Origin: Candidatus Nanohalarchaeota archaeon
Lineage (GTDB): Archaea > Nanohalarchaeota > Nanosalinia > Nanosalinales > JAFCCC01
Length of the DNA: 39,313 nt
Assembly: GCA_017610385.1 (NCBI GenBank)
Contig: JAFCCC010000005.1
Span: 1-39,313, forward strand
Direction: 5' to 3'
Shown here: one piece after another, positions 3,665 through 24,376 of the stretch
How the letters are laid out: each line of letters starts with the position of its first letter
Position numbering within the stretch: the stretch's first letter is position 1
Made by a program: the position numbers and the translations under genes
The notes under the pieces: generated by a model
Databases searched by the model: none
Told to the model about the DNA's origin: nothing
The model's input: only the letters and a program-made list of their open reading frames with translations

Positions 3665-3930
3665 TTAAATTTCATTGAAATTTTGTCTAAGTTTGTTTAT
3701 TTCTTGAAGTGTTAAAGTTTCACAGTAAGCTCTTAATTCCATAATAAATCTTTGGGCTGTTTTTATTCTTTCACTGCATTTTTCTTTATCAACTGGTTCT
3801 GTGTCAATTATTGGAATATAATATTGATTGTCTATTCGATCTTTTTTAAATTCAGAGAATTTTTCGCATTTTATTCCACATTTGAAAAATATTCAGCTTT
3901 TAATTTATTCAAAAAATTTGATTTTTTCAT
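3665..3930 (-). pseudogene. HEPN-domain toxin pseudogene (MNT-HEPN pair) with internal deletions and frameshift
   Basis: ATG at 3930 gives MKKSNFLNKLKAE then an early stop; another frame gives FKCGIKCE-KFSEFKKDRIDNQYY...INKLRQNFNEI*; overlaps MNT 3' end. Confidence 0.72.
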
Positions 3931-4498
3931 AATATTTTTCCCCTCCATGGATTATTGCATGATTCTTTATAATTTCTTTTACTAACAAATTATCTAAATT
4001 AAACTTTCCAATCTTCACATTTATTAAATCATAAATTTTTTGGATTTCTTGCTTTATTTTAGGGTTTGTTGTTTCAATGTATATGTCAATATCACTATCT
4101 TTTTTTTCTGTATTTTTAGCATAACTCCCAAACAAAAGTATTAGATCGCAATTACTTTTGGTAATTACATCTTGGAATAATGGTCCAAGTTCGGGGTGTT
4201 TGATTAATATTTTTGATAATTTATAGTTTTCAGCATTTAGAATAAATGATTTTGAGATTAAATTCTTTTTAATAAAATAAATATGATTTTTTCCTTCCAT
4301 ATTATAATCTAAAACACTTATGTTTCTAAGTTCTGTTAAATGGGATTGCACTCTTGTAAGTGATGTTTTGAGTTCTTTCGCAAGTCCTCTTCCGTGCATT
4401 TCTTTTTTTAGTAAGAGCAAAATTATTTCATAAGAATAATTGATTTTTATTTGATTCATATGCCTTTTTAATAAGTCAACACTATTTAAGTCTTTCAT
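3905..4498 (-). CDS. HTH + minimal nucleotidyltransferase (MNT antitoxin); start may be 4460
   Basis: N-terminal wHTH (MHGRGLAKELKTSLTRVQSHL); LLFGSYAKNTEKKDSDIDI = GSx10DxD. Confidence 0.88.
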   Translation of the reverse strand: MKDLNSVDLLKRHMNQIKINYSYEIILLLLKKEMHGRGLAKELKTSLTRVQSHLTELRNISVLDYNMEGKNHIYFIKKNLISKSFILNAENYKLSKILIKHPELGPLFQDVITKSNCDLILLFGSYAKNTEKKDSDIDIYIETTNPKIKQEIQKIYDLINVKIGKFNLDNLLVKEIIKNHAIIHGGEKYYEKIKFFE

Positions 4499-4733: not shown

Positions 4734-7367
4734 ATGTCTGAAATAGCAATAAATCCAGAAAAAGAAGCAATCATTGAGTTAAAGAGTAATGTTTTGGTTA
4801 CAGCTAACCCGGGCACTGGTAAAACCCTTCTTTTAGCATATAAATACCTTGATTTAATTAACAAAGGTGTTGATCCTGAGCAAATTCTTTGCTTAACATT
4901 TACTGAAAAAGCTAAAAAAGAAATGGAATCTAGAATACTTGAGGTAATTAAAGAAAAAGAAATTAATATGGATATTTCAAAATTAAATGTTTTTACTTTT
5001 CACGCTTATGCGTTAGATAATATTGAAGAAAATGAAATTCTTTCCACAAATCTTTTAAGATATACCATATTTCACTTTCTTAAAGATAATGAAATTCTAA
5101 ATTATTCTGATGAATATCTTCTAAAGGTTATTGTTCCAAAAATGGAAAACCTTATGAGGTATCTAAAGACTTTTGGAATAACACCGGAGCAAATAGATAC
5201 GGCGGAAGTTAAAAAACATCTTGAATCTGGTAGAAACTACGATAAAAAAGAAATAGATAAGTTTGCTGATGATTTTCTGGAAATTTATAAGCATTATGAA
5301 ACTATTAAGAACAGGAGAGGCGTAGATTATGCAGATTTATTAATTAAATTTCTGCAACTAAAAGAAACCCCTAAATTTGATTATGTTCTAGTTGATGAAT
5401 TACAAGATGTTAATGTTATGGAAGCAGAAATAGCTCTGCATTCATGCAAGAATTTTTTCGCGGTAGGAGACAAAAAACAAGCTATATTCGGGTTTCAAGG
5501 GGGTTCTATACTCAATTTCAAGAAATTTTCAAACGCCACTCAAAGAATCTTATCAGAAAATTTTAGAAATACAAATGAAATTTTAACTTACGCTAGAGAA
5601 TATTTTGATTCAAAAACAAAAGAAGAATCTCATAAAAGAGATTTGAAAGATCTGAGAAATGCAAAAAACAAATCTGGGAGCAAACCAATAATTTATGATG
5701 TTAAGCGAGAAAATGTTTATGCGGTTGCTTGTGAGTTAGTAAAAAAATTCAAGGGAAAAACTGCAATTATTGCTAGAACTAATTACCAAATACAAGATAT
5801 TGCAAAAGAACTTTCAGCTCGCGGTATGGATTTTTCCTCAACTTTTTTTTCTGCTTCAAATGATGCCAGAAATCACATAATTACTTTTTTAAAGGGAATA
5901 TTGAGCTCTGATATGCAAGATATAAAAAATGCAATGTTTACTCCATTTTTTCCGTGTTCTTTGCAGGAAGCATTTCAAATAACTGAAAATAGATATATTA
6001 AATTATCAGAACTTTTTGAAAAATTGCCTCAGTTTAGACAAATGAGATATTCTGTAAGAACTGTTGAGGATGTCAACAAATTATTCAAAGAAAAAATAAT
6101 ACCGATTTGTATTAGTTATGGAAAAGAATATTTATCAGCAGCAATATCTCTTCAAGGAGCATATAAAGAAGCACTTGTAGTATTAAAAGAAAAAAATATG
6201 CATTCTTTAATGACTTATCTTCAAGCAACTGATCTTTTATCTCAGGAATCTGATGTAGAAAAAGATATTGTACTTACTACAGTTCATAAAGCAAAGGGAA
6301 AGGAATTTGAAAATGTTATTTATATTCCTTCAAAAACGAGTAATAGAACTAATTTCCAAGACAAAGTGGTTGAAGCTATTCTCTATTCTAAAAATATAAA
6401 TGTAAAAGAGGAACTTGAAGAAGAAACTTTGCGAGTTAATTTTGTTGCATTTACCAGAGCAGAAAAAAATCTTGTGATATTAACTGATAAAATTCAGGAC
6501 TATCTTAACAATTCGGCGCAACTTGGAGAGCTTGAAGCAGAAAATGTGGATGTTTTTGACTTGACAGAAAGTAAATATAGGGCTTTTGACTTATTTGTAA
6601 ATGGTCAATTTGACGAAGCTAAGATATTATTAGAAAACAAAGAAGAATGGATTAGAGATTTTGTAAGAAATCATTTTAAGTCATTGAAGCATATCTCGTT
6701 TAGCTCTTTACCGGATTCTGCCTATACTTATTTTATACAGAACATTCTAGGGATACGAGAAGTAAGTTTTGCTACAACGCTGGGTTCTGAAGTGCATGGA
6801 GCAGCAAAACAAATATTACTAAAAAAGGAGTTTTCAGTAAGTAAAAAAGCAGAACCATTCATTGAAAATGTAAAAAAGATTATTGAAAAAATAGAATATG
6901 ATGAAGTAAAACCTGAATTAAAACTAGAACCACTTCTTTCCTTACTTGGATTTAAATCAGATCTGAAATTTAAGTCATTTATAGATGCTGTTTTTAAAAA
7001 AGGAGAGGAATATTTAATTGTGGACTGGAAAACTGACAAAAAAATAGACTATGCTTCTAAACACAGACAGCAACTGGAGACATATAAAAGAGTATTGTCA
7101 GCTCATGAAGGAATTCCACTTAACAAAATCAAAGTGGCCATTGGTTTTGTGGGCCTTAGAAGCACAATAAATACAGGAAAAATTGGCTTTGAATTTGATG
7201 AAAGGCAACCTGCCAAATCGGCCTTTGACACCTTTTCTAAACGAGTTGAAAAACTATTATCATGGATCGAAGACCCTGAGAACTTCTTCCACGACTTCAT
7301 CGCAGAAGAAAAAGACGAGCTGTTATGGAGAAGTGTCGTAGAAGAATATAGAAAAGACGAGGAGTAA
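4734..7367 (+). CDS. UvrD/REP SF1 helicase fused to a C-terminal PD-(D/E)XK nuclease (AddA/AdnA-like)
   Basis: ANPGTGKT, LTFT, VDELQD, VGDKKQAIFGFQG, TVHKAKGKEF, VAFTRA; C-terminal FIDAVF...IVDWKT...QLETY. Confidence 0.9.
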   Translation: MSEIAINPEKEAIIELKSNVLVTANPGTGKTLLLAYKYLDLINKGVDPEQILCLTFTEKAKKEMESRILEVIKEKEINMDISKLNVFTFHAYALDNIEENEILSTNLLRYTIFHFLKDNEILNYSDEYLLKVIVPKMENLMRYLKTFGITPEQIDTAEVKKHLESGRNYDKKEIDKFADDFLEIYKHYETIKNRRGVDYADLLIKFLQLKETPKFDYVLVDELQDVNVMEAEIALHSCKNFFAVGDKKQAIFGFQGGSILNFKKFSNATQRILSENFRNTNEILTYAREYFDSKTKEESHKRDLKDLRNAKNKSGSKPIIYDVKRENVYAVACELVKKFKGKTAIIARTNYQIQDIAKELSARGMDFSSTFFSASNDARNHIITFLKGILSSDMQDIKNAMFTPFFPCSLQEAFQITENRYIKLSELFEKLPQFRQMRYSVRTVEDVNKLFKEKIIPICISYGKEYLSAAISLQGAYKEALVVLKEKNMHSLMTYLQATDLLSQESDVEKDIVLTTVHKAKGKEFENVIYIPSKTSNRTNFQDKVVEAILYSKNINVKEELEEETLRVNFVAFTRAEKNLVILTDKIQDYLNNSAQLGELEAENVDVFDLTESKYRAFDLFVNGQFDEAKILLENKEEWIRDFVRNHFKSLKHISFSSLPDSAYTYFIQNILGIREVSFATTLGSEVHGAAKQILLKKEFSVSKKAEPFIENVKKIIEKIEYDEVKPELKLEPLLSLLGFKSDLKFKSFIDAVFKKGEEYLIVDWKTDKKIDYASKHRQQLETYKRVLSAHEGIPLNKIKVAIGFVGLRSTINTGKIGFEFDERQPAKSAFDTFSKRVEKLLSWIEDPENFFHDFIAEEKDELLWRSVVEEYRKDEE

Positions 7368-7508: not shown

Positions 7509-8180
7509 ATGAGGATAAAAGATATATCAAAGGAAAATAGGCCCAGAGAAAGGTTCCAGACGTTGGGTGCGTTTGCTTTAAGTGATGCTGAATTACTTGC
7601 AATAATTCTTCAGAAAGGTAGCAAAGAAGAGAATGTGATTGATATGTCTAACAAATTAATCTCAAAATATAAACTAGATAAATTATCCGATTTATCATTA
7701 AAAGAACTTCAAGAAATTAAAGGAATTGGACCTGCTAAAGCTATGCAGATTAAAGCATTATTTGAATTTAACAAAAGATATGATAAAGCTGTTAAAACAA
7801 AAGAAATTGTGACAATAGAAAAACCAGAAGATGTTTATAACTATTTTGTTGATGAATTAAAAGATAAGAAGAAGGAACATTTTTATGCACTTTTATTAGA
7901 CAGTAAAAATAAGATAATCAAGAAAGATTTAATATCTGTTGGGACCTTATATAATTCTTTAGTGCATCCAAGAGAGGTTTTTAAGGAAGCCATTAAGAAC
8001 TCAGCAGCAGGGGTGATATTAGTACATAATCATCCGTCAGGAGACCCAGAACCCAGTGAGAACGATGTTGAGATAACACAAAAAATTGCAAAAGCAGGAA
8101 ATTTATTAAATATAAAAGTTTTAGATCATGTGATAATAGCAGAAAAGGGATGGGATAATATAAAAATAAAATATTCCTAA
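7509..8180 (+). CDS. radC: RadC-family (JAB/MPN) protein
   Basis: RPRER...LSDAELLAIIL, HhH GIGPAKA, VHPREVF, HNHPSGDPEPSEND, LDHVII. Confidence 0.95.
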   Translation: MRIKDISKENRPRERFQTLGAFALSDAELLAIILQKGSKEENVIDMSNKLISKYKLDKLSDLSLKELQEIKGIGPAKAMQIKALFEFNKRYDKAVKTKEIVTIEKPEDVYNYFVDELKDKKKEHFYALLLDSKNKIIKKDLISVGTLYNSLVHPREVFKEAIKNSAAGVILVHNHPSGDPEPSENDVEITQKIAKAGNLLNIKVLDHVIIAEKGWDNIKIKYS

Positions 8181-11113
8181 ATTGTTTTACTATTATTTTT
8201 ATTGTGCTTCTTTTTGTATTTATTAAACTCAAAATATAACAAGTCAAACAATGCTGATTTAACTTTCTTCTTTAATTTTTCATTATCAACTATCCTTTTA
8301 TAAAAGTTCATATTGTTGTTTAACAACTTATTCATTTCCTGATTGAAATATTTATCAAATATTGCTTTAACATTCTCTTTTGAGTTATGTTTCATCTTGT
8401 TTATTAAGTCTTTATTTTCTAAAAGATTATTTTTAACCCGCCCTAAAAAAACCTTATCATCATCTGTAAAGTTTGCTCCAAATGCAGCATTAAGGTCTTT
8501 AATAATTCTTGATAGTTTAGTGTTAATATCTGGAGCATATTCACCAACACTAGAACTAATCGGTTTTAATTCTCCTTCGGAATGTAATTTTATTTCTTTC
8601 TCACCTTTTTTAACGATTTTGTAGGATCCCATATCAACATCTTCTAAGACATTGAAAGGTAGTGGGTTATTAATCGTTGGAAGTTTCTTTTGTAAGAATT
8701 TATTGAAAATATATAATTTTTCCAAATTCACATCTGTAAATGGAATTAATTGAGATAGGAAAGAGTATATGCTTTGATATCTTTTAAGAGTTTTCTTGAA
8801 TCCAACTTGTTCCTTTTTGTTTTTATTTTTGAATTCGTGAACAACAGAACTTAAAATATTATGTAACTTAGGTTGAGCCTCTCCTTTTTTGTATAATTTA
8901 ATGAAAGTGTTTACGTCTGATTGTTCAAATATTTGATAATCTATTAATTTTTCTTCTAAGTCATATAATTTATGTGGGTCTGTTCCCTCTTTCAAGAAAG
9001 TAGCGCCATAATATGGCTGAAAAGCTTTTTGAATTACTTCTGGTTGATTTGCGAAGTCTAAAATTAGAGTATCACTTTTATTTGGCGGATAAATTCTATT
9101 AGCTCTACTTAATGTCTGAACAGCAGTTATTCCATTAAGTATTTTATCAACATATATTTTATGCAATAGAGGTTGATCAAAACCTGTCTGATATTTATTC
9201 GTTACAATTAGAATTTTATAAGGCTCTTCTTGAAATGCTCGTTCTATTGTCTTCTTTGAGGAAAGATTGTTCATATTGTTTTCTGTATATTCTTTTTCAT
9301 CATGCTCTACTACCCCCGTAAACGCAACAAGAGTTTTTATTGGATAATTGTTTCCTTTTATTGCTTTGTCAAATGCTTTTTTGTATAAAACTGCATGAAG
9401 TCTTGACCGCGTTACAACCATTGCCCTTGCCCTTCCTTTAATTTTATACATTGAAGAACTCATAAAATGATCAAGCATAATCTCAGTTTTTTTTGTAATG
9501 GCGTGGGGGTGTTTTTCAACAAAATTCCGAAGTAATTTCTTTGCCTTTCTTTCATCGAATAATGGGTCCTCGGGAATTTTCTTGACCAATTTAAAATAGG
9601 TGTCATAGGTGAGATAATTTTTCAATACATCCAGAATAAAACCTTCTTCAATTGCTTGTTTCATAGAATAAAGGTGGAATGCGTGGTATTTTCCTCTTTC
9701 GTCTCTTGTGCCAAACATTTCGAGTGTTTTATTTTTTGGTGTGGCGGTAAATGCAAAAAAGCTGATATTTTTTAAGTTCCTATATGATTCCACTTCTTTC
9801 AAGAGTTCTTCTTCAATTTCATCTTCAACTTCTCTTTCCATTGCTTCTGCTTCTTCGAGACTATTTGTAGAAAGAATCTGTTTAAGCTTTCTTGCCATTG
9901 CTCCGGTCTGAGAAGAATGTGCCTCATCAATAATAACTGCATATTTTCGTTTTGGAAGATTTTTTGTCTCTTCTAAAATGTATGGGAATTTTTGGAGCGT
10001 GGTTACAACAATATTACTTCCTGTTTTCAAAGCTTCTTTTAAATCCTGAGAGGTTTTATTATCATCAATTAATTCAACAATTCCTTTAACTTTCTCGATA
10101 GATTGAACTTGCCTTTGAAGTTGTTTATCTATAACTTTTCTGTCAGAAATAACAATAACCATGTCATAAACTCTTTCATCTAATCTGTTGAATTTATTAA
10201 TTAAACCATGTGAAAGCCACGCAATTGTCTTAGTTTTTCCAGAACCCGCACTATGCTCTATAAGATATTTTTTGCCTGGTTTTGCATCTGCAAGAAGTTT
10301 ATTAACACAATCTAGCTGATGATATCTCGGAAAAATTGGAAATTCTGTGTTATTATCATCATCTTTTTCTATGTATACGAAATTATTGAGTAATTTTGAA
10401 AGCTTGTTGATTTGCAGAATATCATTGTACAAATAGGAGGTTTTGTAATCATTTTTTACTTCTGGATTTTCCAATCCTTTATTAAAAGGTAAAAATCTTG
10501 TTTTCCATCCTTCTAATTTTGTAGCCAGGAATATCTTTTCATCACTCATTGCAAAATGAACAAAACACCTCTGAAAAATCTTTTCTTTTGGGTCTCTATC
10601 ATCTTTATATTGCTTTATTGCTCTCTCAACACCCTGAGAAAAGGTATCTTTAAGCTCGATTGTTAATATTGGAAGGCCATTTATGAAAATCACAAGGTCT
10701 AATCTATTTCCATTTTCTCTAGATTCATATTCTAATTCATCAACTATTGAAAATATATTTTTTTCAAAATTCTCAAATAGATCGGGGTTTTTCTTATTGT
10801 TTGGTTTTGGATAGAATAAGTGAAATTGACATCCTGCTTCCTTAAAACCAGCTCTCAGAATATTTATTGTGCCTTTCTTTTCAATTTCTGAGACTATTCT
10901 AAAGAAGAATTTTTGTTCTGCCTTGTCTCCATACACTCTTTCAAACTTTTTCCAAGTCTTTTCTTGTGTATCTTTAATGAATTTTAATGTAAGTTCAGGA
11001 TCAAGACAAGTTGCTTTATTGTAATTTTGAGTTCCTCGTTTATGATAGCCAGTACTGACTAGGTGCGCAATAATATCATTCTGAAATGCTTTTTCGCTAG
11101 TGTCAGTTTCCAT
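8177..11113 (-). CDS. hsdR: Type I restriction enzyme R subunit
   Basis: DLVIFINGLPILTIELK nuclease motif, HSAGSGKT, IIDEAH, FTATPK, QTGFDQP, QTLSRANR. Confidence 0.95.
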   Translation of the reverse strand: METDTSEKAFQNDIIAHLVSTGYHKRGTQNYNKATCLDPELTLKFIKDTQEKTWKKFERVYGDKAEQKFFFRIVSEIEKKGTINILRAGFKEAGCQFHLFYPKPNNKKNPDLFENFEKNIFSIVDELEYESRENGNRLDLVIFINGLPILTIELKDTFSQGVERAIKQYKDDRDPKEKIFQRCFVHFAMSDEKIFLATKLEGWKTRFLPFNKGLENPEVKNDYKTSYLYNDILQINKLSKLLNNFVYIEKDDDNNTEFPIFPRYHQLDCVNKLLADAKPGKKYLIEHSAGSGKTKTIAWLSHGLINKFNRLDERVYDMVIVISDRKVIDKQLQRQVQSIEKVKGIVELIDDNKTSQDLKEALKTGSNIVVTTLQKFPYILEETKNLPKRKYAVIIDEAHSSQTGAMARKLKQILSTNSLEEAEAMEREVEDEIEEELLKEVESYRNLKNISFFAFTATPKNKTLEMFGTRDERGKYHAFHLYSMKQAIEEGFILDVLKNYLTYDTYFKLVKKIPEDPLFDERKAKKLLRNFVEKHPHAITKKTEIMLDHFMSSSMYKIKGRARAMVVTRSRLHAVLYKKAFDKAIKGNNYPIKTLVAFTGVVEHDEKEYTENNMNNLSSKKTIERAFQEEPYKILIVTNKYQTGFDQPLLHKIYVDKILNGITAVQTLSRANRIYPPNKSDTLILDFANQPEVIQKAFQPYYGATFLKEGTDPHKLYDLEEKLIDYQIFEQSDVNTFIKLYKKGEAQPKLHNILSSVVHEFKNKNKKEQVGFKKTLKRYQSIYSFLSQLIPFTDVNLEKLYIFNKFLQKKLPTINNPLPFNVLEDVDMGSYKIVKKGEKEIKLHSEGELKPISSSVGEYAPDINTKLSRIIKDLNAAFGANFTDDDKVFLGRVKNNLLENKDLINKMKHNSKENVKAIFDKYFNQEMNKLLNNNMNFYKRIVDNEKLKKKVKSALFDLLYFEFNKYKKKHNKNNSKTI

Positions 11114-13184
11114 TTTCTTCCTCTACATTATCAAATGCTTGTTTTATTAAATTTAACACAGAATCCAATTCTTCAAAATTGCTGATTTTTACTTCTGTGT
11201 CTCCATTTCCCCACTTTCCTTTGCCTGAAACATCTCTGCATTTTTCTTGTGGATCTTTTATTTTTTCAAATGGTATGTTTAATGAAAGACTTAGAGCTTT
11301 TTTCTGAGGAATAATATCAACAAAATTTGTTGATGATTTATAAGCTATATACAGTTTTTGCGGTTCTTCTTTAACAGACGAGTCAATATTCAATATTCTT
11401 TTTCTCAATTCATTAAAGAGAGGGTGCATTGGTTCCCCATCTCTTAAATATTCATGATCTTCGATTGTATATTTCTGTTTTGGTTCTTCTTCGGTTTTGT
11501 ATTTTTCTAACGTTTCTGCTTCAACAGAAGGATAACTCCATATTTCTTTTGCTATATTTATAATCTCTGATGCTCTTTTCTTTATTTCAGTTTCGCTCCA
11601 TTTCTCTAATTGGGCTAATCCTCTGTTTATTCTTATTGGGCTGTCCTTGAATCCTCCTTTCATATCTCTTTTTTCTTTGAAAGGTTTATCGCTTAATTCA
11701 GGATTATAACCGGTTAAAGTGAGATTTCCAATAGTATGAAGATATGTTTTCTGTATTTCTTTCCAATTTTCTCCTAAATCTTCTTTCCATTGTTCAGAAA
11801 GCTTTGGGTTTTGAGGCATAATATGTTCAATAGTATATGATTCTACATCAACAAATTCCTTTCTGTCATGATTCTCAAGCTTTCTTAAGATATAATTCCT
11901 ATTTCTAAAATGGTAAATCTCTTTTATTTGAAGCTCTTTTTGAAATTCTTCATCATCAGGTATTCTTCTGTATGAATCTTGCAGAACAATAATTGCCTTT
12001 ATGCTCTCAAGATAGTTCTCTTTATCTACTTTTTTGTATAATGTTGAAAAAGTTTTGTTTAAAGAATTTGTAGGCACTCCACAAATTGCTCTTCTAAATA
12101 CATAACTTTCAATCACTCTGAGAATTTCGATAAATTGCTCTTTTGTTATCTTTTTATTAGCATAATCATGATAAACACTAAGTATAAATGGATATGAAAC
12201 ATCCACTTTTAACTCGTTAATGTCCGCAAAAGCACTTCTTATATCTTTATCTGGTTCTTTTTCCAATGAGAAGTTTACATAATATTTGGAAAACTTATGC
12301 AGATCAACAACTAATTCTTTTATTGAGCTGAATTTTTTTGAGAATAGCTTGAATGCTTGATATACTTCTTTTATCTTTGGGATCTTATTTTCTTTCATGA
12401 TTAAATAAGACCTTACAAAGAAGTCAAATTCAGCTGTAAATGCTGATTGTCTGAAGTCCTTTTCCATTTCAAACCAGTACTTATTGTATAGTTCTTCCTG
12501 CTCGCTTTTTTCCAATCCCATCAAAATGTAATTTCTGATTAAATCTGCTTGCGTTAGTTCAAGTCCTGTGGAGTTTAAGCTCTCAAAGATTAACTGCGGA
12601 TTGTCTTTTTCTCTATCCAAAGAAACATCAATTATGATTAATTTTGATAGACCTTTGTAGATAGTGTTTAAATCAGCTTTTGCAATCTCGTCCTTAAAGA
12701 AATCATAATTCTCTTTTATCCTTAAAGAATCTTCATTAGTTAAATCAAGATTATCTAATATTTTGAATAATGCAGTTTTATCGCTTTTTGTAAGAATTAA
12801 TTTATATTTATCTTCTCCTTCTTCATTGTCATTCATAAGATAATAGTTTGATAATTTTTTGGGGTTTAATTCTGTTTGAGTACTATTTTCTGTTATGTGC
12901 TTGCATAATGCTGATATCAGTAAGGATAATGTAGTTAATCTTTGCTGACCGTCAATTACTAAGAGCTTTGGGAGTGTTGAAACTTGGTATAATCCTTTTT
13001 CAACATAAACAACAGAACCAATAAAATGTCCTGAAATAGAATCATCTTCTCCAGCTTTGATAATATCTTTCCATAACTGCTTGCATTCTTTTTCTTTCCA
13101 ACTATATGTTCTTTGATAGATTGGAATAACCAATTGTTTCGGTGAATTCAAAAACCGTAAAAAATTAACTTCTTTAGCTTCCAT
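11103..13184 (-). CDS. GmrSD-like DUF262 + DUF1524 (HNH) protein with C-terminal DUF5655-like domain
   Basis: IPIYQRTYSW, IDGQQRLTT, IFESLNSTG; TIEHIMPQ...IGNLTL...N; C-terminal KLYIAYK...GKWGNGD. Confidence 0.88.
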   Translation of the reverse strand: MEAKEVNFLRFLNSPKQLVIPIYQRTYSWKEKECKQLWKDIIKAGEDDSISGHFIGSVVYVEKGLYQVSTLPKLLVIDGQQRLTTLSLLISALCKHITENSTQTELNPKKLSNYYLMNDNEEGEDKYKLILTKSDKTALFKILDNLDLTNEDSLRIKENYDFFKDEIAKADLNTIYKGLSKLIIIDVSLDREKDNPQLIFESLNSTGLELTQADLIRNYILMGLEKSEQEELYNKYWFEMEKDFRQSAFTAEFDFFVRSYLIMKENKIPKIKEVYQAFKLFSKKFSSIKELVVDLHKFSKYYVNFSLEKEPDKDIRSAFADINELKVDVSYPFILSVYHDYANKKITKEQFIEILRVIESYVFRRAICGVPTNSLNKTFSTLYKKVDKENYLESIKAIIVLQDSYRRIPDDEEFQKELQIKEIYHFRNRNYILRKLENHDRKEFVDVESYTIEHIMPQNPKLSEQWKEDLGENWKEIQKTYLHTIGNLTLTGYNPELSDKPFKEKRDMKGGFKDSPIRINRGLAQLEKWSETEIKKRASEIINIAKEIWSYPSVEAETLEKYKTEEEPKQKYTIEDHEYLRDGEPMHPLFNELRKRILNIDSSVKEEPQKLYIAYKSSTNFVDIIPQKKALSLSLNIPFEKIKDPQEKCRDVSGKGKWGNGDTEVKISNFEELDSVLNLIKQAFDNVEEENGN

Positions 13185-14470
13185 TATGCAACAGCCTCCT
13201 TTACATCAACCTTTCCAGTCACAACATGATGGATTAATGATGTTTTATACTCTTCCCTGAGATTAAACTTTTCTTGGATTTTATTAATTGTTTGGTCAAT
13301 CTTTGAAGTTTCTTTGTCTAAATATTCAACTATTTGGAATTGTTCTTTTTTTGGTGGAACAGGCAACTTAATATTTGAAAGAGTAGTAGGATCTGCTCTT
13401 GGCATCTTCACTCCGTAAGTGAGTGAATTTACATAGTCTATATATCCTTTAGAAATTAGTCTATATTTTAGAAATAAAGGTAAGACTTCCTTAGCTTCAT
13501 AAACAATGATTTCTGTACTGCATACACCTCTATCTTGTGTTATTACAACTTTTACTAAATATGGTCTTAATTTTCCAAAGAGTACATTATTTTCAGTAAA
13601 TGTTAATGTGTCTCCATCAACATCATTAGAATTTCCATATTTTTTTAGTTTTCCAGTTTCAGACTCAATATGTTCAAGTCCAATATATTTCTTGTTTTCT
13701 GCATCTTTAACTTTATTTTTCTTTTCATTTGCAAAGAATTTTAACTTTTTAACTTCCCAACCATCAGGAATATCTCCAATCCAGTCAATCCCAGAATCTT
13801 TCATCTTTGCTTTAGGATCAAGCCCTTTTGTCACAACATGATTAATGAGAGCTGTTCTTTTTTCTTTCAAGAGTTCAATCAATTCCTTGTCTTTTTCGAT
13901 AGTTTGGTCTATTTTTGAGGTCTTTGAATCGAGGAAAGAGGTTATAGCTTCTTGTTCTATTTTTTGAGGAAATGCACAAAAAAGATTTACAATATCCTCT
14001 TTATTAATACCTGCTTGCGCACCACCAGTTTGATGTAGTAAAATTTGTTCTCTTTGAGATAAAAGATAGTAAAAAACATACTTTGAATTTGTTTTTCTAT
14101 TTGGTTGAATTCCAATTACTGACTGGTTTGCTGTAGCTCTAAAAGTTAAATATCCAATATTTGCACAAGTAGCTCCAGTTAAAGCTACTAAAACAGAGTC
14201 CTTTTTGATCCATTTAGCTGAACTTTTTGATAATCCTTCTAAAGTAATAAATGTGGTCACTTCATTTTCATGGATTGACTTATCATGCACCCTTCCAGAA
14301 GGAAGCCAAGGAATCTTTCCATCCCAAAAAGCAGTATTTGTAGTATCGGGAGTCCCTCCAGCAATCGAAATAGAAAAATGTTTAACTTTTTTTACTTCCC
14401 ACTCTTCTGGGATCTCTCCAATCCATTGGATTCCTGAATCTTTGTATTTTAGATAGGGTTTGAGTTTCAT
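13184..14470 (-). CDS. hsdS: Type I R-M specificity subunit (two TRDs)
   Basis: Repeated KDSGIxWIGxIPxxWEVKK conserved regions, PxxxEQxxI helices, C-terminal VVTGKVDV. Confidence 0.95.
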   Translation of the reverse strand: MKLKPYLKYKDSGIQWIGEIPEEWEVKKVKHFSISIAGGTPDTTNTAFWDGKIPWLPSGRVHDKSIHENEVTTFITLEGLSKSSAKWIKKDSVLVALTGATCANIGYLTFRATANQSVIGIQPNRKTNSKYVFYYLLSQREQILLHQTGGAQAGINKEDIVNLFCAFPQKIEQEAITSFLDSKTSKIDQTIEKDKELIELLKEKRTALINHVVTKGLDPKAKMKDSGIDWIGDIPDGWEVKKLKFFANEKKNKVKDAENKKYIGLEHIESETGKLKKYGNSNDVDGDTLTFTENNVLFGKLRPYLVKVVITQDRGVCSTEIIVYEAKEVLPLFLKYRLISKGYIDYVNSLTYGVKMPRADPTTLSNIKLPVPPKKEQFQIVEYLDKETSKIDQTINKIQEKFNLREEYKTSLIHHVVTGKVDVKEAVA

Positions 14471-16131
14471 TTTGAAATGCCTCCAAAATGAGTTTCAATA
14501 TATTCATACTGCTTTTTCCCAGAAAGCTTATCTGTTGCAGGATTTGTTCTCACATAAAATTCTTCATCTTTTCCTAGAAATACTGGTTTTTTACTTGGTT
14601 TACATTCAAAGTGTAATACTTTCTTATCTTCAACTGAAATTATTTTATAATTAATCAAGTCATAGAATTCAGGACCAAAATCTCTTTTAATTAAATTCTT
14701 CACATGTTTTAGAATATCATCATTAGATTCAAAATCATCATTGTTCAAGCCCAGTATTTCTCCTTCATCATTAACACCAACTAATAAAATTCCCCCTGCT
14801 GAATTCATAAAACCAGCAATATTTTTTAGTGTCGCCTTTTCAATTACTGAATCTGGAACGCCTTCTTTTTCAATTGATTTTCTTAAAGTTGATTTAAATT
14901 CTAAAGTTTTACTTTCTCCTTCTCTAATTAATGATAATATTTTATCTGAATCTTTTAACATATCTAAAGAATCAAGCATACTAGTTAAATCCTTTTCAAT
15001 AGATTCAACACTTTTTGGATTTAGAGCGATTTCCTCTTCAAACGAATCTATTTTTAATTTTAGTTGATTCAACTTTCTATCAGATTCAATTACCTTATTT
15101 TGTAGTTCTATAGAAGGTACAGAAACTAATAAGTTTTCAACATCGGCCTTGTTTATGTGAGGAATTACTGTACCAGAAAAAAGGCTCTTTAAATTTAATT
15201 TTCCTATTTTTGAATTAAAAAATAATGATAAATATTCTGATTTAACTAAATTCTTATCTAAAACAATTTGTATAAGATTCTGATGTTTAACTGAAACTTT
15301 TTTTAAATCAGAGGTAGTTTTTAAAGTCCCAACTTTTGGAATATAGATTGAATTATCTTTTTCATCTACTCTATTTCTTATATTAATTTCATTAGATAAT
15401 TCTTTCAATGAATATTTTTTAAAATCTTTGTATAATTTTGATAATTTATCTAATTGTTTAGAGATTTTGTATTTCTCAAAACCTCTAAAATTAGTATCCA
15501 GAAACATACCTTCCGCTAGACTAACCGAGTTTCCCTTATTTTTATTTTCTAAAACTCTATTTATATCACTATTCTCTTCAATTTCTGCTACAAAAATTTT
15601 ATTCTTTTTTTCTTTAGAGATAACAACAATTATTGGTCTCAAGCCGGTGGCAGGTTTTAATATATTTTCAGGAATGTTAAAAACACTTTCAATGTAAAAT
15701 CCTCTCTTATTAAGCAAATCAATAAAATTAGCTCCAGTTTGAGAATTTAATAGTAATGGCTCAACTAAATAAATACCCTTGCCATTTTCAGATAAGTTGT
15801 ATAAAGATCTTAAAATAACAATCCAATTTTTTCTTTCTTTTATATCAATATTTTTTTTAGGATTTTTGTACTCTTCCTTCATCCAGCCAAAGGGTAAGTC
15901 TCCTACGATTAAATCGAAATTTTGTTTTAATCCATCTAATAACAAAAGAGGATCACCATATTTTATTTTTTCGTTCTCTCCTTTTTCATGAATCTTAAAA
16001 ATTAAATCTGCTTCATTATCTAGCTTTGAAAATAAACTAAATTCAGATAGATCCATTAACAATGTTTTATGTAAACTCCATTTTTCTTTAATTGCCAGTA
16101 CAAATTTAGATAGTTCCATCTTATTCAACAT
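14467..16131 (-). CDS. Fusion of degenerate N6-MTase-like domain, TRD-like domain, coiled coil and Schlafen/AlbA_2 domain; start likely 16119
   Basis: FDLIVGDLPFG in place of NPPY/F; YLSLFFNSKIG...GTVIPHINKADVENLLVSVPSIELQ (HsdS-like); EGESKTLEFKSTLR...IAGFMNSAGGILLVGVNDEG...FYVR (AlbA_2). Confidence 0.75.
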   Translation of the reverse strand: MLNKMELSKFVLAIKEKWSLHKTLLMDLSEFSLFSKLDNEADLIFKIHEKGENEKIKYGDPLLLLDGLKQNFDLIVGDLPFGWMKEEYKNPKKNIDIKERKNWIVILRSLYNLSENGKGIYLVEPLLLNSQTGANFIDLLNKRGFYIESVFNIPENILKPATGLRPIIVVISKEKKNKIFVAEIEENSDINRVLENKNKGNSVSLAEGMFLDTNFRGFEKYKISKQLDKLSKLYKDFKKYSLKELSNEINIRNRVDEKDNSIYIPKVGTLKTTSDLKKVSVKHQNLIQIVLDKNLVKSEYLSLFFNSKIGKLNLKSLFSGTVIPHINKADVENLLVSVPSIELQNKVIESDRKLNQLKLKIDSFEEEIALNPKSVESIEKDLTSMLDSLDMLKDSDKILSLIREGESKTLEFKSTLRKSIEKEGVPDSVIEKATLKNIAGFMNSAGGILLVGVNDEGEILGLNNDDFESNDDILKHVKNLIKRDFGPEFYDLINYKIISVEDKKVLHFECKPSKKPVFLGKDEEFYVRTNPATDKLSGKKQYEYIETHFGGISK

Positions 16132-18196
16132 CTTCCTTTATCAACTCTTGAATCTCAGCAGTTACTTTCTTAATATCCGCTTCAATCTCTTCCAAAGGTC
16201 TTGGCGGGACATACTTGTAAAAATACTGGGTGAAGTTTATTTCATAGCCTATCTTGTCTTTTTTCCTGTCCATCCACGCATCAGAATAGTAAGGTTTTAC
16301 TTCTTTTTCAAAATATTCTTCGATGTCTTGCTTTAATGGGATCTTCTCTGAATCTCTTAGTGCAGAATCTGGTTTCTTCTTTCCTTTATTGTCTGTAACA
16401 TACTCAGCAGTTTCATCAGGCTCAGATAAAGCAAGAATAATATTCTTGATAAAAGCAGGAGTTAATTTTATGCCTTTCAAAGCTTCGGTAATCTTGTCTT
16501 CAAATTCGTCCCAATTCTTATATAATGATGAACCGATTGTTTTCAAAGCACGGATAATCTCATCTTGTTTCTTCCGTCCTTCTTCCTCTTCTTTTAGTTT
16601 TTCATCAGGATTTTCTTTTTTACTTTCAGCCAATTTTGAAAATCCCTTATAGGCATATAAATTCTCAAGTCTTTCTTCATTAACACAGAAATTTAGTTGT
16701 AACGGTCGTTCAACGGTTACTTTAGTATATCCAAAGTCTTCATTATCAAATATTTTTACATTTTTAGAATTGCTAAATTTCTTATAATATTCAAGAATTT
16801 CTTTAAGGTCATCCTCTGTTAAATATTGTCTTTTGTAACCCAGACTTCTACGCATTTTCTTGAATTTGGACGTTGCATCAATTAACTGGATTTTTCCAAT
16901 TCTTTCTGTTGGTTTATCGTTTGTTAAAACCCAAACATAGGTTCTAATGCCCGTATTATAGAATAATTGACCCGGTAATGCAATAATGGCTTCTACATAA
17001 TCACTTTCGATCATCCATTTTCTAATATTGCTTTCTCCTTGTCCTGCATCACCTGTGAATAATGGAGAGCCATTTGTAATAACTGCAATTCTTGACTTTT
17101 CTTTAGTTTTCATCTTAGAAAGCATATGTTGTAAAAATAATAATTGTCCATCATTTATGCGTGGTAAACCTGCCCCAAACCGGCCTTCAAAACCTCTTTC
17201 TGCCTCTTTTTTTACTTCGTTTTGATCTGCTTCCCATTTGGTCCCATAAGGTGGATTCGATATTATAAAATCAAATTTTTCATTTTTGAACTGATCATCA
17301 GACAAGGTACTTTTAGGACCCTTAATGTTATTGGATTCTTCTCCCTTTATCAACATATCTGCCTTGCAAATTGCGTAAATTTCCTCATTCAATTCTTGAC
17401 CAAATAATACCGTTTCAATAGAATCGTTCATCCGTCTAATGAATTCTTTACAACTAGTAAGCATCCCTCCCGTACCACACGCAGGATCATAAATTGTTTT
17501 AATAAGGTTTTTTTCAGATAAATGAACCCCATTTTCAATAAAAATCAATTTAGTCATCAAACCCACCACATCTCTAGGCGTAAAATGTTCTCCCGCCTCT
17601 TCATTAGATTGTTCTGCAAATCTCCGGATCAATTCCTCAAAGATGGTGCCCATTTCATGATTGGATACTACTTCAGGATGTAAATCTACTTTTGATTCAG
17701 AAAATTTCTTAACAAGCAAAAATAAAAGATTTGCTTTTGCCAATCTTGCAATGTGATTTTTTAAATAGAAATTTTCAAAAATATCTTGAACATTCTTACT
17801 AAATCTATCTAGATAATGCATTAAATTTTGTTCAATATGTTCTGGATCTTCAAGTAATGTTTTGAAATCGTACCTAGAATAATTATAAAATCCAAGGGGT
17901 CTTCCCTTTTTGTCTTTTGCAGCAGTTTGCAAAACGTGTTTTAAATTTTCAAATTGGTCTTTGTATTTGTTATATGCTTCCAAAACTTGAGATTTAGAAT
18001 CACTTAAAACCGAATCGAATCTTTTTAAAACAACAAAAGGAAGTATAACTTTCTGGTATTCATTGCGTTTATAGGTGCCCCGCAATAAATCTGCTAAGTC
18101 CCAAATGAATGTTATTTTTTCTTGAAAATTGTTTTTCATTGTACCGAACTGCCTCTGAGAGAATAAAAATATTCTTTTTAAAGGATTATGAAACAA
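16121..18196 (-). CDS. hsdM: Type I R-M methyltransferase subunit; start likely 18139 (MKNNFQEK)
   Basis: FIWDLADLLRG, GEHFTPRDVV, IYDPACGTGGML, ISNPPYG, GYEINF. Confidence 0.96.
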   Translation of the reverse strand: MFHNPLKRIFLFSQRQFGTMKNNFQEKITFIWDLADLLRGTYKRNEYQKVILPFVVLKRFDSVLSDSKSQVLEAYNKYKDQFENLKHVLQTAAKDKKGRPLGFYNYSRYDFKTLLEDPEHIEQNLMHYLDRFSKNVQDIFENFYLKNHIARLAKANLLFLLVKKFSESKVDLHPEVVSNHEMGTIFEELIRRFAEQSNEEAGEHFTPRDVVGLMTKLIFIENGVHLSEKNLIKTIYDPACGTGGMLTSCKEFIRRMNDSIETVLFGQELNEEIYAICKADMLIKGEESNNIKGPKSTLSDDQFKNEKFDFIISNPPYGTKWEADQNEVKKEAERGFEGRFGAGLPRINDGQLLFLQHMLSKMKTKEKSRIAVITNGSPLFTGDAGQGESNIRKWMIESDYVEAIIALPGQLFYNTGIRTYVWVLTNDKPTERIGKIQLIDATSKFKKMRRSLGYKRQYLTEDDLKEILEYYKKFSNSKNVKIFDNEDFGYTKVTVERPLQLNFCVNEERLENLYAYKGFSKLAESKKENPDEKLKEEEEGRKKQDEIIRALKTIGSSLYKNWDEFEDKITEALKGIKLTPAFIKNIILALSEPDETAEYVTDNKGKKKPDSALRDSEKIPLKQDIEEYFEKEVKPYYSDAWMDRKKDKIGYEINFTQYFYKYVPPRPLEEIEADIKKVTAEIQELIKEDVE

Positions 18197-18327: not shown

Positions 18328-18690
18328 TTAAGAAGTGGATGTGAGATTCTGCCTTATCTGATCCTTCAAATTTTCTTCAATCCTCGTCACAAGATTTTTA
18401 GAAATAACTTCATTCGCTTCGTACCAATCCAACCCGGACTTTAATAAATAAGCTAAAACAACGGCATTACTTCTAGACATACCACCACGACAAACAACTA
18501 TTACTTTTTTTCCTTTTTTCAGAGCCTTTTCAACTAATTGCACTTTACTCATGAATTGACCCCAATTATCCTGATACCCATCAATAAGATCCCAAACAAT
18601 AATAAATTCTATTTCAGGATTTTCTTTAACACGAAGGCTCTCGTAATTGTAATAATTGCAAGTTCCGAGGTTTTCATTGTACCAGAACAT
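18328..18690 (-). CDS. Dual-specificity/tyrosine protein phosphatase-like protein
   Basis: VIVVCRGGMSRS = Cx5R(S) P-loop; upstream DLIDG acid loop. Confidence 0.8.
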   Translation of the reverse strand: MFWYNENLGTCNYYNYESLRVKENPEIEFIIVWDLIDGYQDNWGQFMSKVQLVEKALKKGKKVIVVCRGGMSRSNAVVLAYLLKSGLDWYEANEVISKNLVTRIEENLKDQIRQNLTSTS

Positions 18691-22921: not shown

Positions 22922-24376
22922 CTATTGCTCTTGTTGACCTTCCCAAATACGCTTGGAGATCTTCTGTAACTCTTGCGGATCGATTTCTCCGTTAATAATT
23001 CCCGTCATAATCTCTTGGAACATTTCTCCGTATTTCTTGCTTTTCTTCTGGAATTCCATCGCCGTCTTTTGGGATAATGGCCTTCGGCAATTCCAGCATA
23101 AACTTCTGTCTCCTGAATTAGTACTGCCACATACACCACAAACAATGCTCTCTTTTTTGTTATCTTTGATCTCGTATCCGTACAATTCACTTAGTACGGT
23201 TTTATCGGTTCTGCTATCATTCATATGAATATAAGTTCCGGGAGTTCTCGAGCCTTGGGCCCAACCAAACATAGAACACATTGTTGCTTCCCCTAATCCA
23301 CTTTCCGCAACAATAGAGGCTCTACGATGTCTGAAATTATGACAATATATTTTACTTGAATCTATTCCTGCTTGTTTGGCCTTAGTTTTAAGAAGCATTC
23401 TTAACGCAGAATAATTCAACGGCTCCCAATCTTTTGCTTTAAAATTACCGCAAGTTGCTTCAAAGGGATATTCACTATTTTTTAATTGATATCTTCCGTC
23501 CTTCACCTTTTCAAATACGCCTTGTTTGATCAAACTATTCTTCTTGTCATATAACAAGTATTTAACGACCCTTTGCGAAAGGCCGGAAATCTTTGCCAAA
23601 TGTTCCACACTCCAAAGCACGTCTCTTCGATTTGCCACAAAGGAAAGTAGAAGGTCTCTGGAATGCTCTCTCTGAGTTTTGCCACAATGTACGCAAGTAG
23701 TCCGTTGTACTTTGATGAATAATGGTGCATCAGGATCTTTTGGACTTAGTGGATCTCCTCCAGCAGGATGTTCTGCGATCCAATTTAGTAAATCTCTAAC
23801 ACACTTAACAACTCTAACAGATCTGATTTTTGTTTTACTTTTGGAAATTGTAATCTTTGCTCCATACTCGTCAAAAATAATATCTCCTAGTTTGATAGAT
23901 AATAATTCAGCTGCCCTGAATCCAGATTCTTCCAATAAAGAAATAATTAATCTTGAACGACTATCGTAACAAACAGAAAGTAATTTTTGAATATCTTCTT
24001 CTGTAGGCATGTCAGATGGAATTTTAGAATTCTTAGCTTTCTTCATTGATTTAAAAACACGTGTTTTACGTGGGAAATCTTCTCCGTCTCCTTCCATCAC
24101 TTTGTAGAATTTTCTGATGGCCACTCTGTAATCATATTTAGTATTTTGAGCATATTTTGACTGATTAATATTATACGCCAAGCGTTCTAATTCTTCTTGA
24201 GTAGAATCAATTAATTTAAATTCAGGATTCATTAATTTGCGAATTGCATTAAAAGAAACTTTGTATTTTTTTATTCTTATTTCACTTAAACCTTCAACAC
24301 TACATTTGTGTAAAAATCTATTTACAGCTCTATCATTTTCCCATATAACGTCTACGACCATTATATTCGACCCCAT
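22922..24376 (-). CDS. Tyrosine recombinase/integrase with C-terminal zinc ribbon and internal Zn-finger/wHTH insertion
   Basis: Catalytic R154 (SGFRAAE), K181, H346-x-x-R349, W372, Y382; CGVC...CWNC ribbon; adjacent to tRNA 3' end. Confidence 0.93.
   Translation of the reverse strand: MGSNIMVVDVIWENDRAVNRFLHKCSVEGLSEIRIKKYKVSFNAIRKLMNPEFKLIDSTQEELERLAYNINQSKYAQNTKYDYRVAIRKFYKVMEGDGEDFPRKTRVFKSMKKAKNSKIPSDMPTEEDIQKLLSVCYDSRSRLIISLLEESGFRAAELLSIKLGDIIFDEYGAKITISKSKTKIRSVRVVKCVRDLLNWIAEHPAGGDPLSPKDPDAPLFIKVQRTTCVHCGKTQREHSRDLLLSFVANRRDVLWSVEHLAKISGLSQRVVKYLLYDKKNSLIKQGVFEKVKDGRYQLKNSEYPFEATCGNFKAKDWEPLNYSALRMLLKTKAKQAGIDSSKIYCHNFRHRRASIVAESGLGEATMCSMFGWAQGSRTPGTYIHMNDSRTDKTVLSELYGYEIKDNKKESIVCGVCGSTNSGDRSLCWNCRRPLSQKTAMEFQKKSKKYGEMFQEIMTGIINGEIDPQELQKISKRIWEGQQEQ

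Follow-up and report, generated by a model that had tools for sequence, protein, structure and literature searches.

What kind of protein is encoded by a gene lodged between hsdM and hsdS of a type I restriction–modification (R-M) operon, and what would such a protein sense? We addressed this question for gene X on contig JAFCCC010000005.1 of a Candidatus Nanohalarchaeota archaeon, a 39,313-nt stretch that was analyzed as a whole (hereafter, the window; positions in Table 1 refer to it). Domain matches, a family alignment, and structure prediction suggest that X copies the type I methyltransferase (MTase) core in a single, catalytically dead chain, with a Schlafen domain joined at the C-terminus. 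We propose that two chains would pair via HsdS-like helices to form an M2S1-shaped pseudo-methyltransferase clamp acting as the sensor, with the Schlafen domain as an effector that would cut tRNA or other RNA and thereby stop translation, leading to abortive infection. It is probable, in our judgment, that X is an autonomous sensor–effector of the pSlfn type, and the gene offers a concrete model for methyltransferase-fused Schlafens, in which a pseudoenzyme would copy the shape of the DNA-recognition core of a restriction enzyme.

Five genes on the same strand abut or overlap in the order hsdM, X, hsdS, a GmrSD-like gene, and hsdR. The stop of hsdM and the start of X overlap by 11 nt, and the TGA stop of X and the ATG of hsdS overlap as ATGA; gene X is translationally nested in the type I operon, between hsdM and hsdS. 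The open reading frame (ORF) list and the translation bear out, position included, what an earlier note on this DNA had described as a gene wedged between hsdM and hsdS. The HsdM of the window has both motif I and NPPY intact in the alignment. We rejected the idea that X is a recent duplicate of the neighboring genes, as BLASTP comparisons of X with the HsdS and HsdM of the window gave an E value of 0.18 each.

A search of 5.8 billion clustered proteins returned 78 matches, the first 42 of which (query included) have the full architecture of X, and 40 of those 42 make up our family alignment, from which P0009 and P0021 (304-aa fragment) were left out. Pfam SLFN_AlbA_2 (AlbA_2, PF04326) matches residues 406–536 of X (E 1.1e-19), PADLOC Specificity_I models cover residues ~237–367 (best E 5.7e-11), and NCBIfam MAD5, an S subunit model, matches residues 272–348 (E 2.2e-9). 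For the N-terminal 394 residues, Pfam gave chance-level matches only (DUF16 and PhoU, at E >0.1), and a single-sequence search of Protein Data Bank (PDB) sequences with X gave nothing significant (best E 0.12). Among the 40 family members, 18 match Pfam Methylase_S and four reach Pfam N6_Mtase. The family profile matched the PDB sequences of EcoKI HsdS (E 3.9e-12), 7eew (E 2.4e-11), and EcoR124I HsdM (E 2.3e-3), as well as those of SLFN14 (E 4e-4), Slfn8 (E 4.9e-4), and SLFN12 (E 1.3e-3).

The AlphaFold2 (AF2) model of X, built on 40 relatives, has a mean predicted local distance difference test score (pLDDT) of 87.1 and a predicted template modeling score (pTM) of 0.61. Its top match by Foldseek in the PDB is 7eew_A (E 2.4e-14), according to the entry title an M-S fused single-chain ‘intact MTase’ of V. 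vulnificus solved with Ocr, followed by CamA, M.TaqI, EcoR124I HsdM, and PacII. The model superposes on HsdM, M.TaqI, and CamA and also on AlbA_2 structures; the superposition on M.TaqI and CamA extends through X residues 342/363, while the alignment to HsdM begins only at about residue 150–200 of the HsdM chain, and X has no match to the HsdM N-terminal helical domain (PF12161). With one target recognition domain (TRD) and one helical hairpin, compared to the two TRDs and two conserved regions of a full HsdS, X has a half-S arrangement. Pfam scans found no PD-(D/E)xK or HNH motif in X. Profile matches and the AF2 model agree on the domain order that had been read from the letters of the sequence, namely a pseudo-MTase, a half-HsdS TRD, a coiled coil, and a Schlafen domain.

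The methyltransferase part of X retains the Rossmann fold of the gamma-class N6-adenine MTases and lacks both their motif I and their motif IV. At the motif IV column, 32 of the 40 aligned sequences have D and six have N; the position of the first proline is occupied by L in 37, the next by P in 36, and the fourth by L in 19 and F in 15. The context of motif IV in the short forms, such as X, is G-[DN]-L-P-[LF]-G, without the first proline of NPPY/F and without conservation of the aromatic residue. The motif I loop reads MDLSEFSLF in X, with a family consensus (LxLxxSxFxxF) that has no conserved glycine, and in motif VIII ‘IL’ stands in place of ‘LF’. The least conserved part of the family is its first 70 residues, with a mean pairwise identity of 0.21. 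From the state of these motifs, X is very probably unable to bind S-adenosylmethionine (SAM).

Seven longer genomic relatives (602–961 aa) put this loss into perspective. Six of them (L023, L024, L025, L027, L029, and L031) carry HsdM_N and N6_Mtase (E 1e-57 to 1e-106) before the TRD, helices, and Schlafen domain, and all six keep YDPxCGTGG in the alignment. Five of the six have NPPF, NPPY, or NPPW at the column of the DLPF of X, and the sixth, L029, has YPPF; the seventh long relative, L030, has HPPL and a degraded motif I. L029 and L030 look like intermediate stages of decay. Because the short forms have lost the motifs I and IV that most of the long forms keep, X appears to be a pseudoenzyme version of an HsdM–TRD–Schlafen fusion. 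The idea of a catalytically dead mimic, put forward in the earlier note, has so far survived this examination of the N-terminus, which is MTase- and TRD-like and without catalytic motifs. Two of the long relatives (L025 and L031) are directly followed by a separate, second hsdM-hsdS-hsdR set. Elsewhere in the family, L019:10061-11257 is an ORF of 398 aa whose match begins only at query residue 116, and L026:9824-11458 consists of two ORFs of 433 and 93 aa; both may be decayed copies or assembly errors.

While the N-terminal residues are the least conserved, conservation in the family is highest in the Schlafen domain (mean pairwise identity 0.53). Within it, E406, E411, and K413 are present in 40 of 40 sequences, and G452 and D455 in 39 of 40 each. 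The motif formed by the first three residues, E-x4-(E/D)-x-K, is described as catalytic in Schlafen domains in a passage of Taboada et al. (Nat Microbiol 2026, PMC13056530). Passages of the same paper and of Weickert et al. (Nat Commun 2026, PMC13462974) describe the motif as needed for tRNA cleavage in characterized prokaryotic and human Schlafens, and pSlfn proteins with an E-x4-E-x-K motif as trigger-activated tRNases that defend against phage. The Schlafen domain of X looks active by its residues, and by analogy with these proteins we infer that X would act as an RNase. X shares with pSlfn proteins the AlbA_2 domain, the E-x4-(E/D)-x-K motif, a non-nuclease fusion module (its first 400 residues), and a neighborhood of defense genes.

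Working specificity subunits diversify their TRDs. The TRD of the X family is not hypervariable, having a mean pairwise identity of 0.41 compared to 0.36 for the MTase core (helices, 0.40; n = 40), which suggests that it serves one conserved ligand or a structural role. Residues 205–554 of X were predicted as a complex of two copies in three runs, together with three controls. The homodimer reached ipSAE values of 0.60, 0.60, and 0.56, whereas the best of the three controls scored 0.00; the runs share at least 89% of contacts, and the partner pLDDT is at least 79. Of the calibration proteins, 20 of 30 whose solved structure is a pair of one chain attained this mark, as did 1 of 23 whose solved structure is a single chain. 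The predicted interface is twofold (357 with 357) and comprises residues 339–391, 230–237, and 303–310. X is predicted to pair through its HsdS-like helices, as half-HsdS proteins do, and, with the fused HsdM-like domains, to form an M2S1-shaped particle.

We analyzed the distribution of X and its linkage to type I R-M genes among genome contigs, which yielded 80 loci. The loci L001–L031 include the N-terminal module, and L032–L080 match only from query residue 311, chiefly the Schlafen domain. By their record titles, the 31 loci with the N-terminal module span Ignavibacteria, Flavobacteriia, Chloroflexota, Calditrichota, Alpha-, Beta-, and Gammaproteobacteria, Desulfobacterota, Cyanobacteria, Planctomycetes, Spirochaetes, and a Gracilibacteria metagenome-assembled genome (MAG), a patchy distribution of the sort expected of a mobile defense gene. 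In viral contigs, none of the six confirmed matches was full length, all of them covering the Schlafen domain only.

Type I genes were detected by tblastn, with 26 type I proteins as the query panel, and loci were considered well flanked when at least 4 kb was available on both sides. Any type I gene was found at 11 of the 31 X loci and all three at 8; among the well-flanked loci, nine of 18 had a type I gene and the other nine had none (short forms, 5 of 13; long forms, 4 of 5). The position of X relative to the R-M genes varies: it lies before hsdM, between M and S as in the window, or after hsdR. At the 22 loci without adjacent R-M genes, only housekeeping families were common among the first 25 of the 71 families matched by the 102 neighboring ORFs; within the same 25 families there were single matches to Shedu SduA_C and to an integrase, and two AAA_21/AAA_15 proteins. 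X thus lies with type I R-M genes far more often than chance would give, yet the linkage is facultative. The linkage of homologues to R-M, which the earlier note had made a test of its idea, holds only in part, at 11 of the 31 loci and at half of the well-flanked ones. As a general rule, we rejected X as an obligate R-M component, given the nine well-flanked loci without a type I gene and the 102 neighboring ORFs without a shared R-M family among the first 25 of the 71 families matched.

The sensor module also occurs with another C-terminus. We searched 1.84 billion representatives with X residues 1–404 only, obtaining 1473 matches at E ≤1e-3, 669 at E ≤1e-10, and 163 at E ≤1e-30, most of the top ones being Schlafen forms of 530–590 aa. 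Among the matches was a sister family (P0200-type; 714–785 aa; E ~1e-33 to the query) that has an HsdM-like fold with a mostly degenerate motif IV, a TRD, and helices, followed by a different C-terminal domain of ~290 aa and no AlbA_2 domain. This C-terminal domain has a helical part, in which R617, N618, and H623 of YRNxWKGHGG are invariant, and then a beta part; it also contains ‘QNACYFYNR’. It gave no Pfam match at E up to 5 (11 members), no PADLOC family (only weak MTase/S matches for the protein), and no match among PDB sequences; an Atlas search with it returned unnamed clusters only (score 0.92), and in a fold search with the whole model methyltransferases filled the list. An HEPN-like reading of the YRNxWKGH motif is a guess.

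In metagenome contigs we confirmed at least 321 relatives of the sister family and kept 80 loci (L085–L164). Type I genes lie at 51 of these 80 loci and at 19 of the 23 that are well flanked, compared to nine of 18 for X, and at 15 of the 80 the gene stands between R-M genes of the same strand, typically in the order hsdM-hsdS, gene, hsdR. The sister family thus differs from X in having no Schlafen domain, in keeping the HsdM N-terminal helical domain, and in its much tighter R-M linkage. The presence of the same M–TRD module on two C-termini suggests that the dead module is a reusable unit, borne by at least two C-terminal domains and, in the broader family, apparently tied tightly to type I operons. 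Reuse of this kind marks a modular sensor, and the C-terminal domain of the sister family becomes a second, uncharacterized candidate effector.

What would activate X? The likeliest trigger, in our proposal, would be an anti-restriction protein that mimics DNA, as Ocr and ArdA do, and occupies the clamp, with X acting as a decoy, as in Ronin; the second choice would be the invading DNA itself. Located in or beside a type I operon, X would provide a second line when restriction is blocked. The conserved TRD fits a decoy because a DNA mimic needs the shape of the clamp and not a particular recognition sequence, and the dead motifs fit it because sensing a DNA mimic needs no catalysis. The occurrence of this module inside type I operons in the sister family, where another C-terminal domain follows it, lends the idea indirect support. 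We favor a decoy because the HsdMS core of Ronin already serves as one without methyltransferase activity. Both the trigger and the abortive infection are what we infer for X, and the decoy trigger, argued by analogy, is a tentative suggestion with rather less than an even chance of being right. The statement as a whole, in which an autonomous protein combines a dead M2S1-like sensor with a Schlafen effector and most likely responds to a DNA mimic, is likewise tentative, falling somewhat short of even.

Several points weigh against this proposal. None of the computed results separates a DNA mimic from DNA as the trigger, and a clamp that accepts Ocr should accept DNA too, so that the avoidance of self-activation is unexplained by the model. 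Six relatives keep HsdM_N and N6_Mtase with motif I, five of them with NPP[FYW], which would be needless for a pure decoy. The Schlafen domains lie outside the predicted dimer interface, and the dimer does not account for how a ligand would switch them on; moreover, the dimer score may simply reflect likeness to solved HsdS coiled coils, a caveat of the tool. The RNA substrate of X is assumed from other Schlafen proteins. As for autonomy, the panel of 26 proteins could miss distant type I families, the summary of neighboring families covers the first 25 of 71 and could hide single R-M matches, and HsdR occurs above the curated cut-off elsewhere in four of the five genomes in which X appears as an orphan (control genomes, 4 of 14), making cooperation in trans possible.

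The best-placed alternative, though an unlikely one in our estimation, is that X senses DNA directly: the clamp would bind a feature of invading DNA, such as an unmethylated fixed sequence, a modified base, or an end or structure, and turn on the Schlafen RNase, so that a restriction-like test of self and non-self would be wired to abortive infection and not to DNA cleavage. The closest folds are all those of DNA-bound MTase–TRD enzymes (M.TaqI, CamA, BseCI, and the type IIG/IIB enzymes BpuSI, DrdV, and BsaXI), and the relatives with HsdM_N and N6_Mtase, five with NPP[FYW], could mark self DNA. Weickert et al. also speculate, in a passage on R-M-linked Schlafens, that these proteins sense structures made by DNA cleavage (PMC13462974). 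Against direct sensing, the short forms cannot methylate, so a fixed site would occur in host DNA too, and their TRD is conserved across phyla, unlike the diversified TRDs of working specificity subunits. Motif IV keeps no conserved aromatic residue (L in 19 and F in 15 of 40), and the change of ‘LF’ to ‘IL’ in motif VIII argues against a preserved pocket for a flipped base.

A quite improbable alternative makes X an accessory subunit of the type I enzyme of its own operon, with a tethered RNase that is released or activated when the enzyme is blocked, i.e., a PrrC-like guard in cis; co-assembly with HsdM and HsdS had also been considered in the earlier note. The translational nesting of X between hsdM and hsdS speaks for it, as do the type I genes at 11 of the 31 X loci and at 51 of the 80 sister loci, often in the same operon, the HsdR genes found elsewhere in the orphan genomes (4 of 5, against 4 of 14 in controls), and the description of PrrC as activated in this way (passage in bioRxiv 10.1101/2023.04.06.535777). 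Comparison of R-M-linked loci in 36 pairs yielded no sign of co-divergence: X is 29–44% identical across pairs, and the adjacent HsdM proteins are mostly 25–38% identical, X being the more alike in 32 of the 36 pairs; the adjacent HsdS proteins are 19–43% identical over short stretches, X being the more alike in 35. To judge from these identities, one tight X family stands beside R-M neighbors of unrelated type I families. Nor does X significantly resemble its own HsdS or HsdM (E 0.18 each). R-M genes are absent from half of the well-flanked loci, the position of X relative to the R-M genes is not fixed, and the predicted self-dimer takes up the helices with which a partner would be bound. The failure of X to co-diverge with its neighbors and its dissimilarity to its own HsdS and HsdM argue against a specific partnership and for an autonomous module, and together with the predicted self-dimer they leave co-assembly disfavored. 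Finally, it is very improbable that AlbA_2 cuts or binds DNA, making X a degenerate type IIG-/type IV-like restriction protein or a DNA-binding operon regulator: some relatives are named ‘putative DNA binding domain-containing protein’ in databases, but the invariant E-x4-E-x-K is the motif needed for tRNA cleavage in characterized Schlafens, PD-(D/E)xK and HNH motifs were not found, and a regulator would not need nuclease residues strictly kept in 40 of 40 sequences.

The decoy proposal for X can be extended, more doubtfully, to the sister family. X and its sister would then belong to a widespread, unrecognized superfamily of dead M2S1 decoys with interchangeable toxic effectors, serving as anti-anti-restriction sensors triggered by the DNA mimics of phages and plasmids. 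A mimic would close the pseudo-clamp and unleash the effector, the Schlafen RNase in X and the Rx5H-bearing domain in the sister. If the trigger of X is a DNA mimic, decoy immunity extends beyond the single E. coli system Ronin to a family of many phyla, and the lodging of such genes in type I operons is explained; if the reading of a superfamily is also true, Ronin-type decoy immunity is common among bacterial phyla and occurs in genomes as small as 0.79 Mb.

The surroundings of X in the window (Table 1) include a second embedded defense gene between hsdS and hsdR, the GmrSD-like gene, which encodes DUF262, DUF1524, and a C-terminal DUF5655 and is also matched by PADLOC Orf5 (E 1.3e-186), HEC-06 (E 7.6e-73), and PDC-S18 (residues 540–684). 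Five ORFs between hsdM and the integrase matched no Pfam family. The operon region is a mobile defense island. The host assembly amounts to 788,277 bases in 18 contigs and is 93.5% complete, other genomes of its order measuring 0.6–1.7 Mb; this very small genome nonetheless carries a defense operon of five genes and ~10 kb. Of the 41 genomes of the order that we searched, only that of the window has a full-length X, and three others have partial domain matches only. One relative of the host (L082, G009:C1:821858-822304) has a Schlafen domain 31% identical to X residues 400–549 within a 1148-aa open frame whose architecture is unlike that of X. The closest type I genes found are those of the Gracilibacteria MAG (L017; HsdM 53%, HsdR 46%), in which X lies upstream of hsdM and not between M and S.

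Table 1 Features of gene X, its operon, and the flanking region in the window.
Feature	Position	Strand	Description and basis
Gene X	14467..16131	-	554 aa; pseudo-HsdM + TRD + helical hairpin + Schlafen/AlbA_2; ORF list, translation, AF2 model
HsdM-like Rossmann (N6-MTase) fold of X	15448..16122	-	Residues 4-228; without SAM motif I
DLPFG of X	15886..15900	-	Motif IV remnant (NPPF/Y in active relatives); translation
Single HsdS-like TRD of X	15112..15426	-	Residues 236-340; PADLOC, NCBIfam, profile, superposition
Two long helices of X	14920..15111	-	Residues 341-404 (helices 341-370 and 372-404, turn at invariant P372); DSSP of model; predicted dimer interface
Schlafen/AlbA_2 nuclease domain of X	14470..14919	-	Residues 405-554
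ESKTLEFK of X	14893..14916	-	E-x4-E-x-K (E406, E411, K413); translation
GVND of X	14767..14778	-	G452-D455, conserved acidic loop of Schlafen domain; translation
hsdM	16121..18196	-	691 aa; Pfam N6_Mtase E 1.8e-66, HsdM_N E 6.5e-21; PADLOC MTase_I E 9.4e-270
hsdS	13184..14470	-	428 aa, two TRDs; Pfam Methylase_S E 4e-31, two stretches; PADLOC Specificity_I E 6.3e-105
GmrSD-like type IV nuclease gene	11103..13184	-	Pfam GmrSD_N E 2.5e-38, GmrSD_C E 1.6e-26, DUF5655 E 1.1e-15
hsdR	8177..11113	-	978 aa; NCBIfam hsdR E 3e-63; Pfam HSDR_N, ResIII, SWI2_SNF2, T1R_D3-like
Phage-type integrase	22922..24376	-	Near operon
Small DSPc phosphatase	18328..18690	-	Just upstream of hsdM
UvrD helicase fused to PD-(D/E)xK nuclease	4734..7367	+	Flanks operon
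RadC-like JAB protein	7509..8180	+	Flanks operon
Nucleotidyltransferase	3905..4498	-	Flanks operon

Among known systems close to X are the single-chain M-S and type IIG/IIB/ISP enzymes (7eew, M.TaqI, CamA, BpuSI, BsaXI, DrdV, MmeI, and LlaBIII), which share with X the order of a gamma-class N6-MTase followed by a TRD. These enzymes are active, have both the SAM and the NPPY/F motifs, and carry a nuclease, if any, that is not a Schlafen, whereas X lacks both motifs and does not combine an active MTase with a DNA endonuclease domain in one chain, as type IIG/IIB enzymes do. The anticodon nucleases PrrC and RloC are, as X would be by its sequence, RNase-type effectors inside type I R-M loci. In PrrC, the N-domain is ABC-ATPase-like and the nuclease fold is another one, and the EcoprrI enzyme itself keeps the protein silent. 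X, compared to PrrC, carries an M/S-like module of its own, and R-M genes are missing next to half of its relatives. A passage of Silas et al. (bioRxiv 10.1101/2023.04.06.535777) describes PrrC as backing up restriction when it is inhibited, an RNase effector encoded in a type I operon.

The same preprint describes, in its passages on Ronin, a system of HsdM, HsdS, and RonA in which a type I core without restriction function leads to cell death triggered by Ocr or ArdA, needs no methyltransferase activity, and often occurs in genomes without a full type I system (bioRxiv 10.1101/2023.04.06.535777). Ronin has a separate, intact HsdM, an HsdS, and a 61-aa membrane toxin, whereas X unites a degenerate MTase and a Schlafen effector in a single chain; no gene for a RonA-like small membrane toxin adjoins X or lies in the operon, the genes of which abut or overlap. 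Because RonA is missing, X would not be classed as a Ronin system, though it may work like one.

With the pSlfn proteins, X shares an AlbA_2 domain bearing E-x4-E-x-K, a fused probable sensor module, and a setting in a defense island. Characterized pSlfn proteins, as described in passages of two papers, use other modules: an Ig-like–Schlafen fusion senses the T5 tail assembly chaperone and the DUF262 fusion EcoSlfn7 was phage-protective in the same screen (PMC13056530), and Cash, a Csx15-domain Schlafen, is switched on by cyclic tetra-adenylate (cA4; PMC13462974). X instead has an MTase–TRD module, methyltransferase fusions not being among the members characterized so far, and its Schlafen domain is C-terminal, and the corresponding passages of both papers are silent on a dead MTase domain, a TRD, or dimeric M2S mimicry. 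In passages of Weickert et al. (PMC13462974), over half of defense-associated prokaryotic Schlafens are reported with restriction systems and other nucleases, the activation of R-M-linked Schlafens is stated as still to be defined, and ‘direct fusions with methyltransferases’ form Schlafen Cluster 3. The earlier note regarded X as the best candidate for an undescribed system, which is only partly right: Weickert et al. have named the kind of fusion, and it is the mechanism that is not given in those passages. A passage of the SLFN-pAgo preprint also describes, in Poribacteria, a type I specificity subunit that carries a fused Schlafen–ATPase module. Full-text literature searches brought up no account of the MTase part as a pseudoenzyme, of a single conserved TRD, of an M2S-like dimer, or of the sister family, although the supplementary tables of PMC13056530 and PMC13462974, which were outside the search, may list the architecture. 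Judged by its sequence features, X belongs with the pSlfn proteins and stands apart from both active HsdM and full HsdS. The methyltransferase–Schlafen kind of fusion is already known as Cluster 3, and the apparently dead MTase, the conserved TRD, the predicted M2S-like dimer, and the sister family appear to be newly described here.

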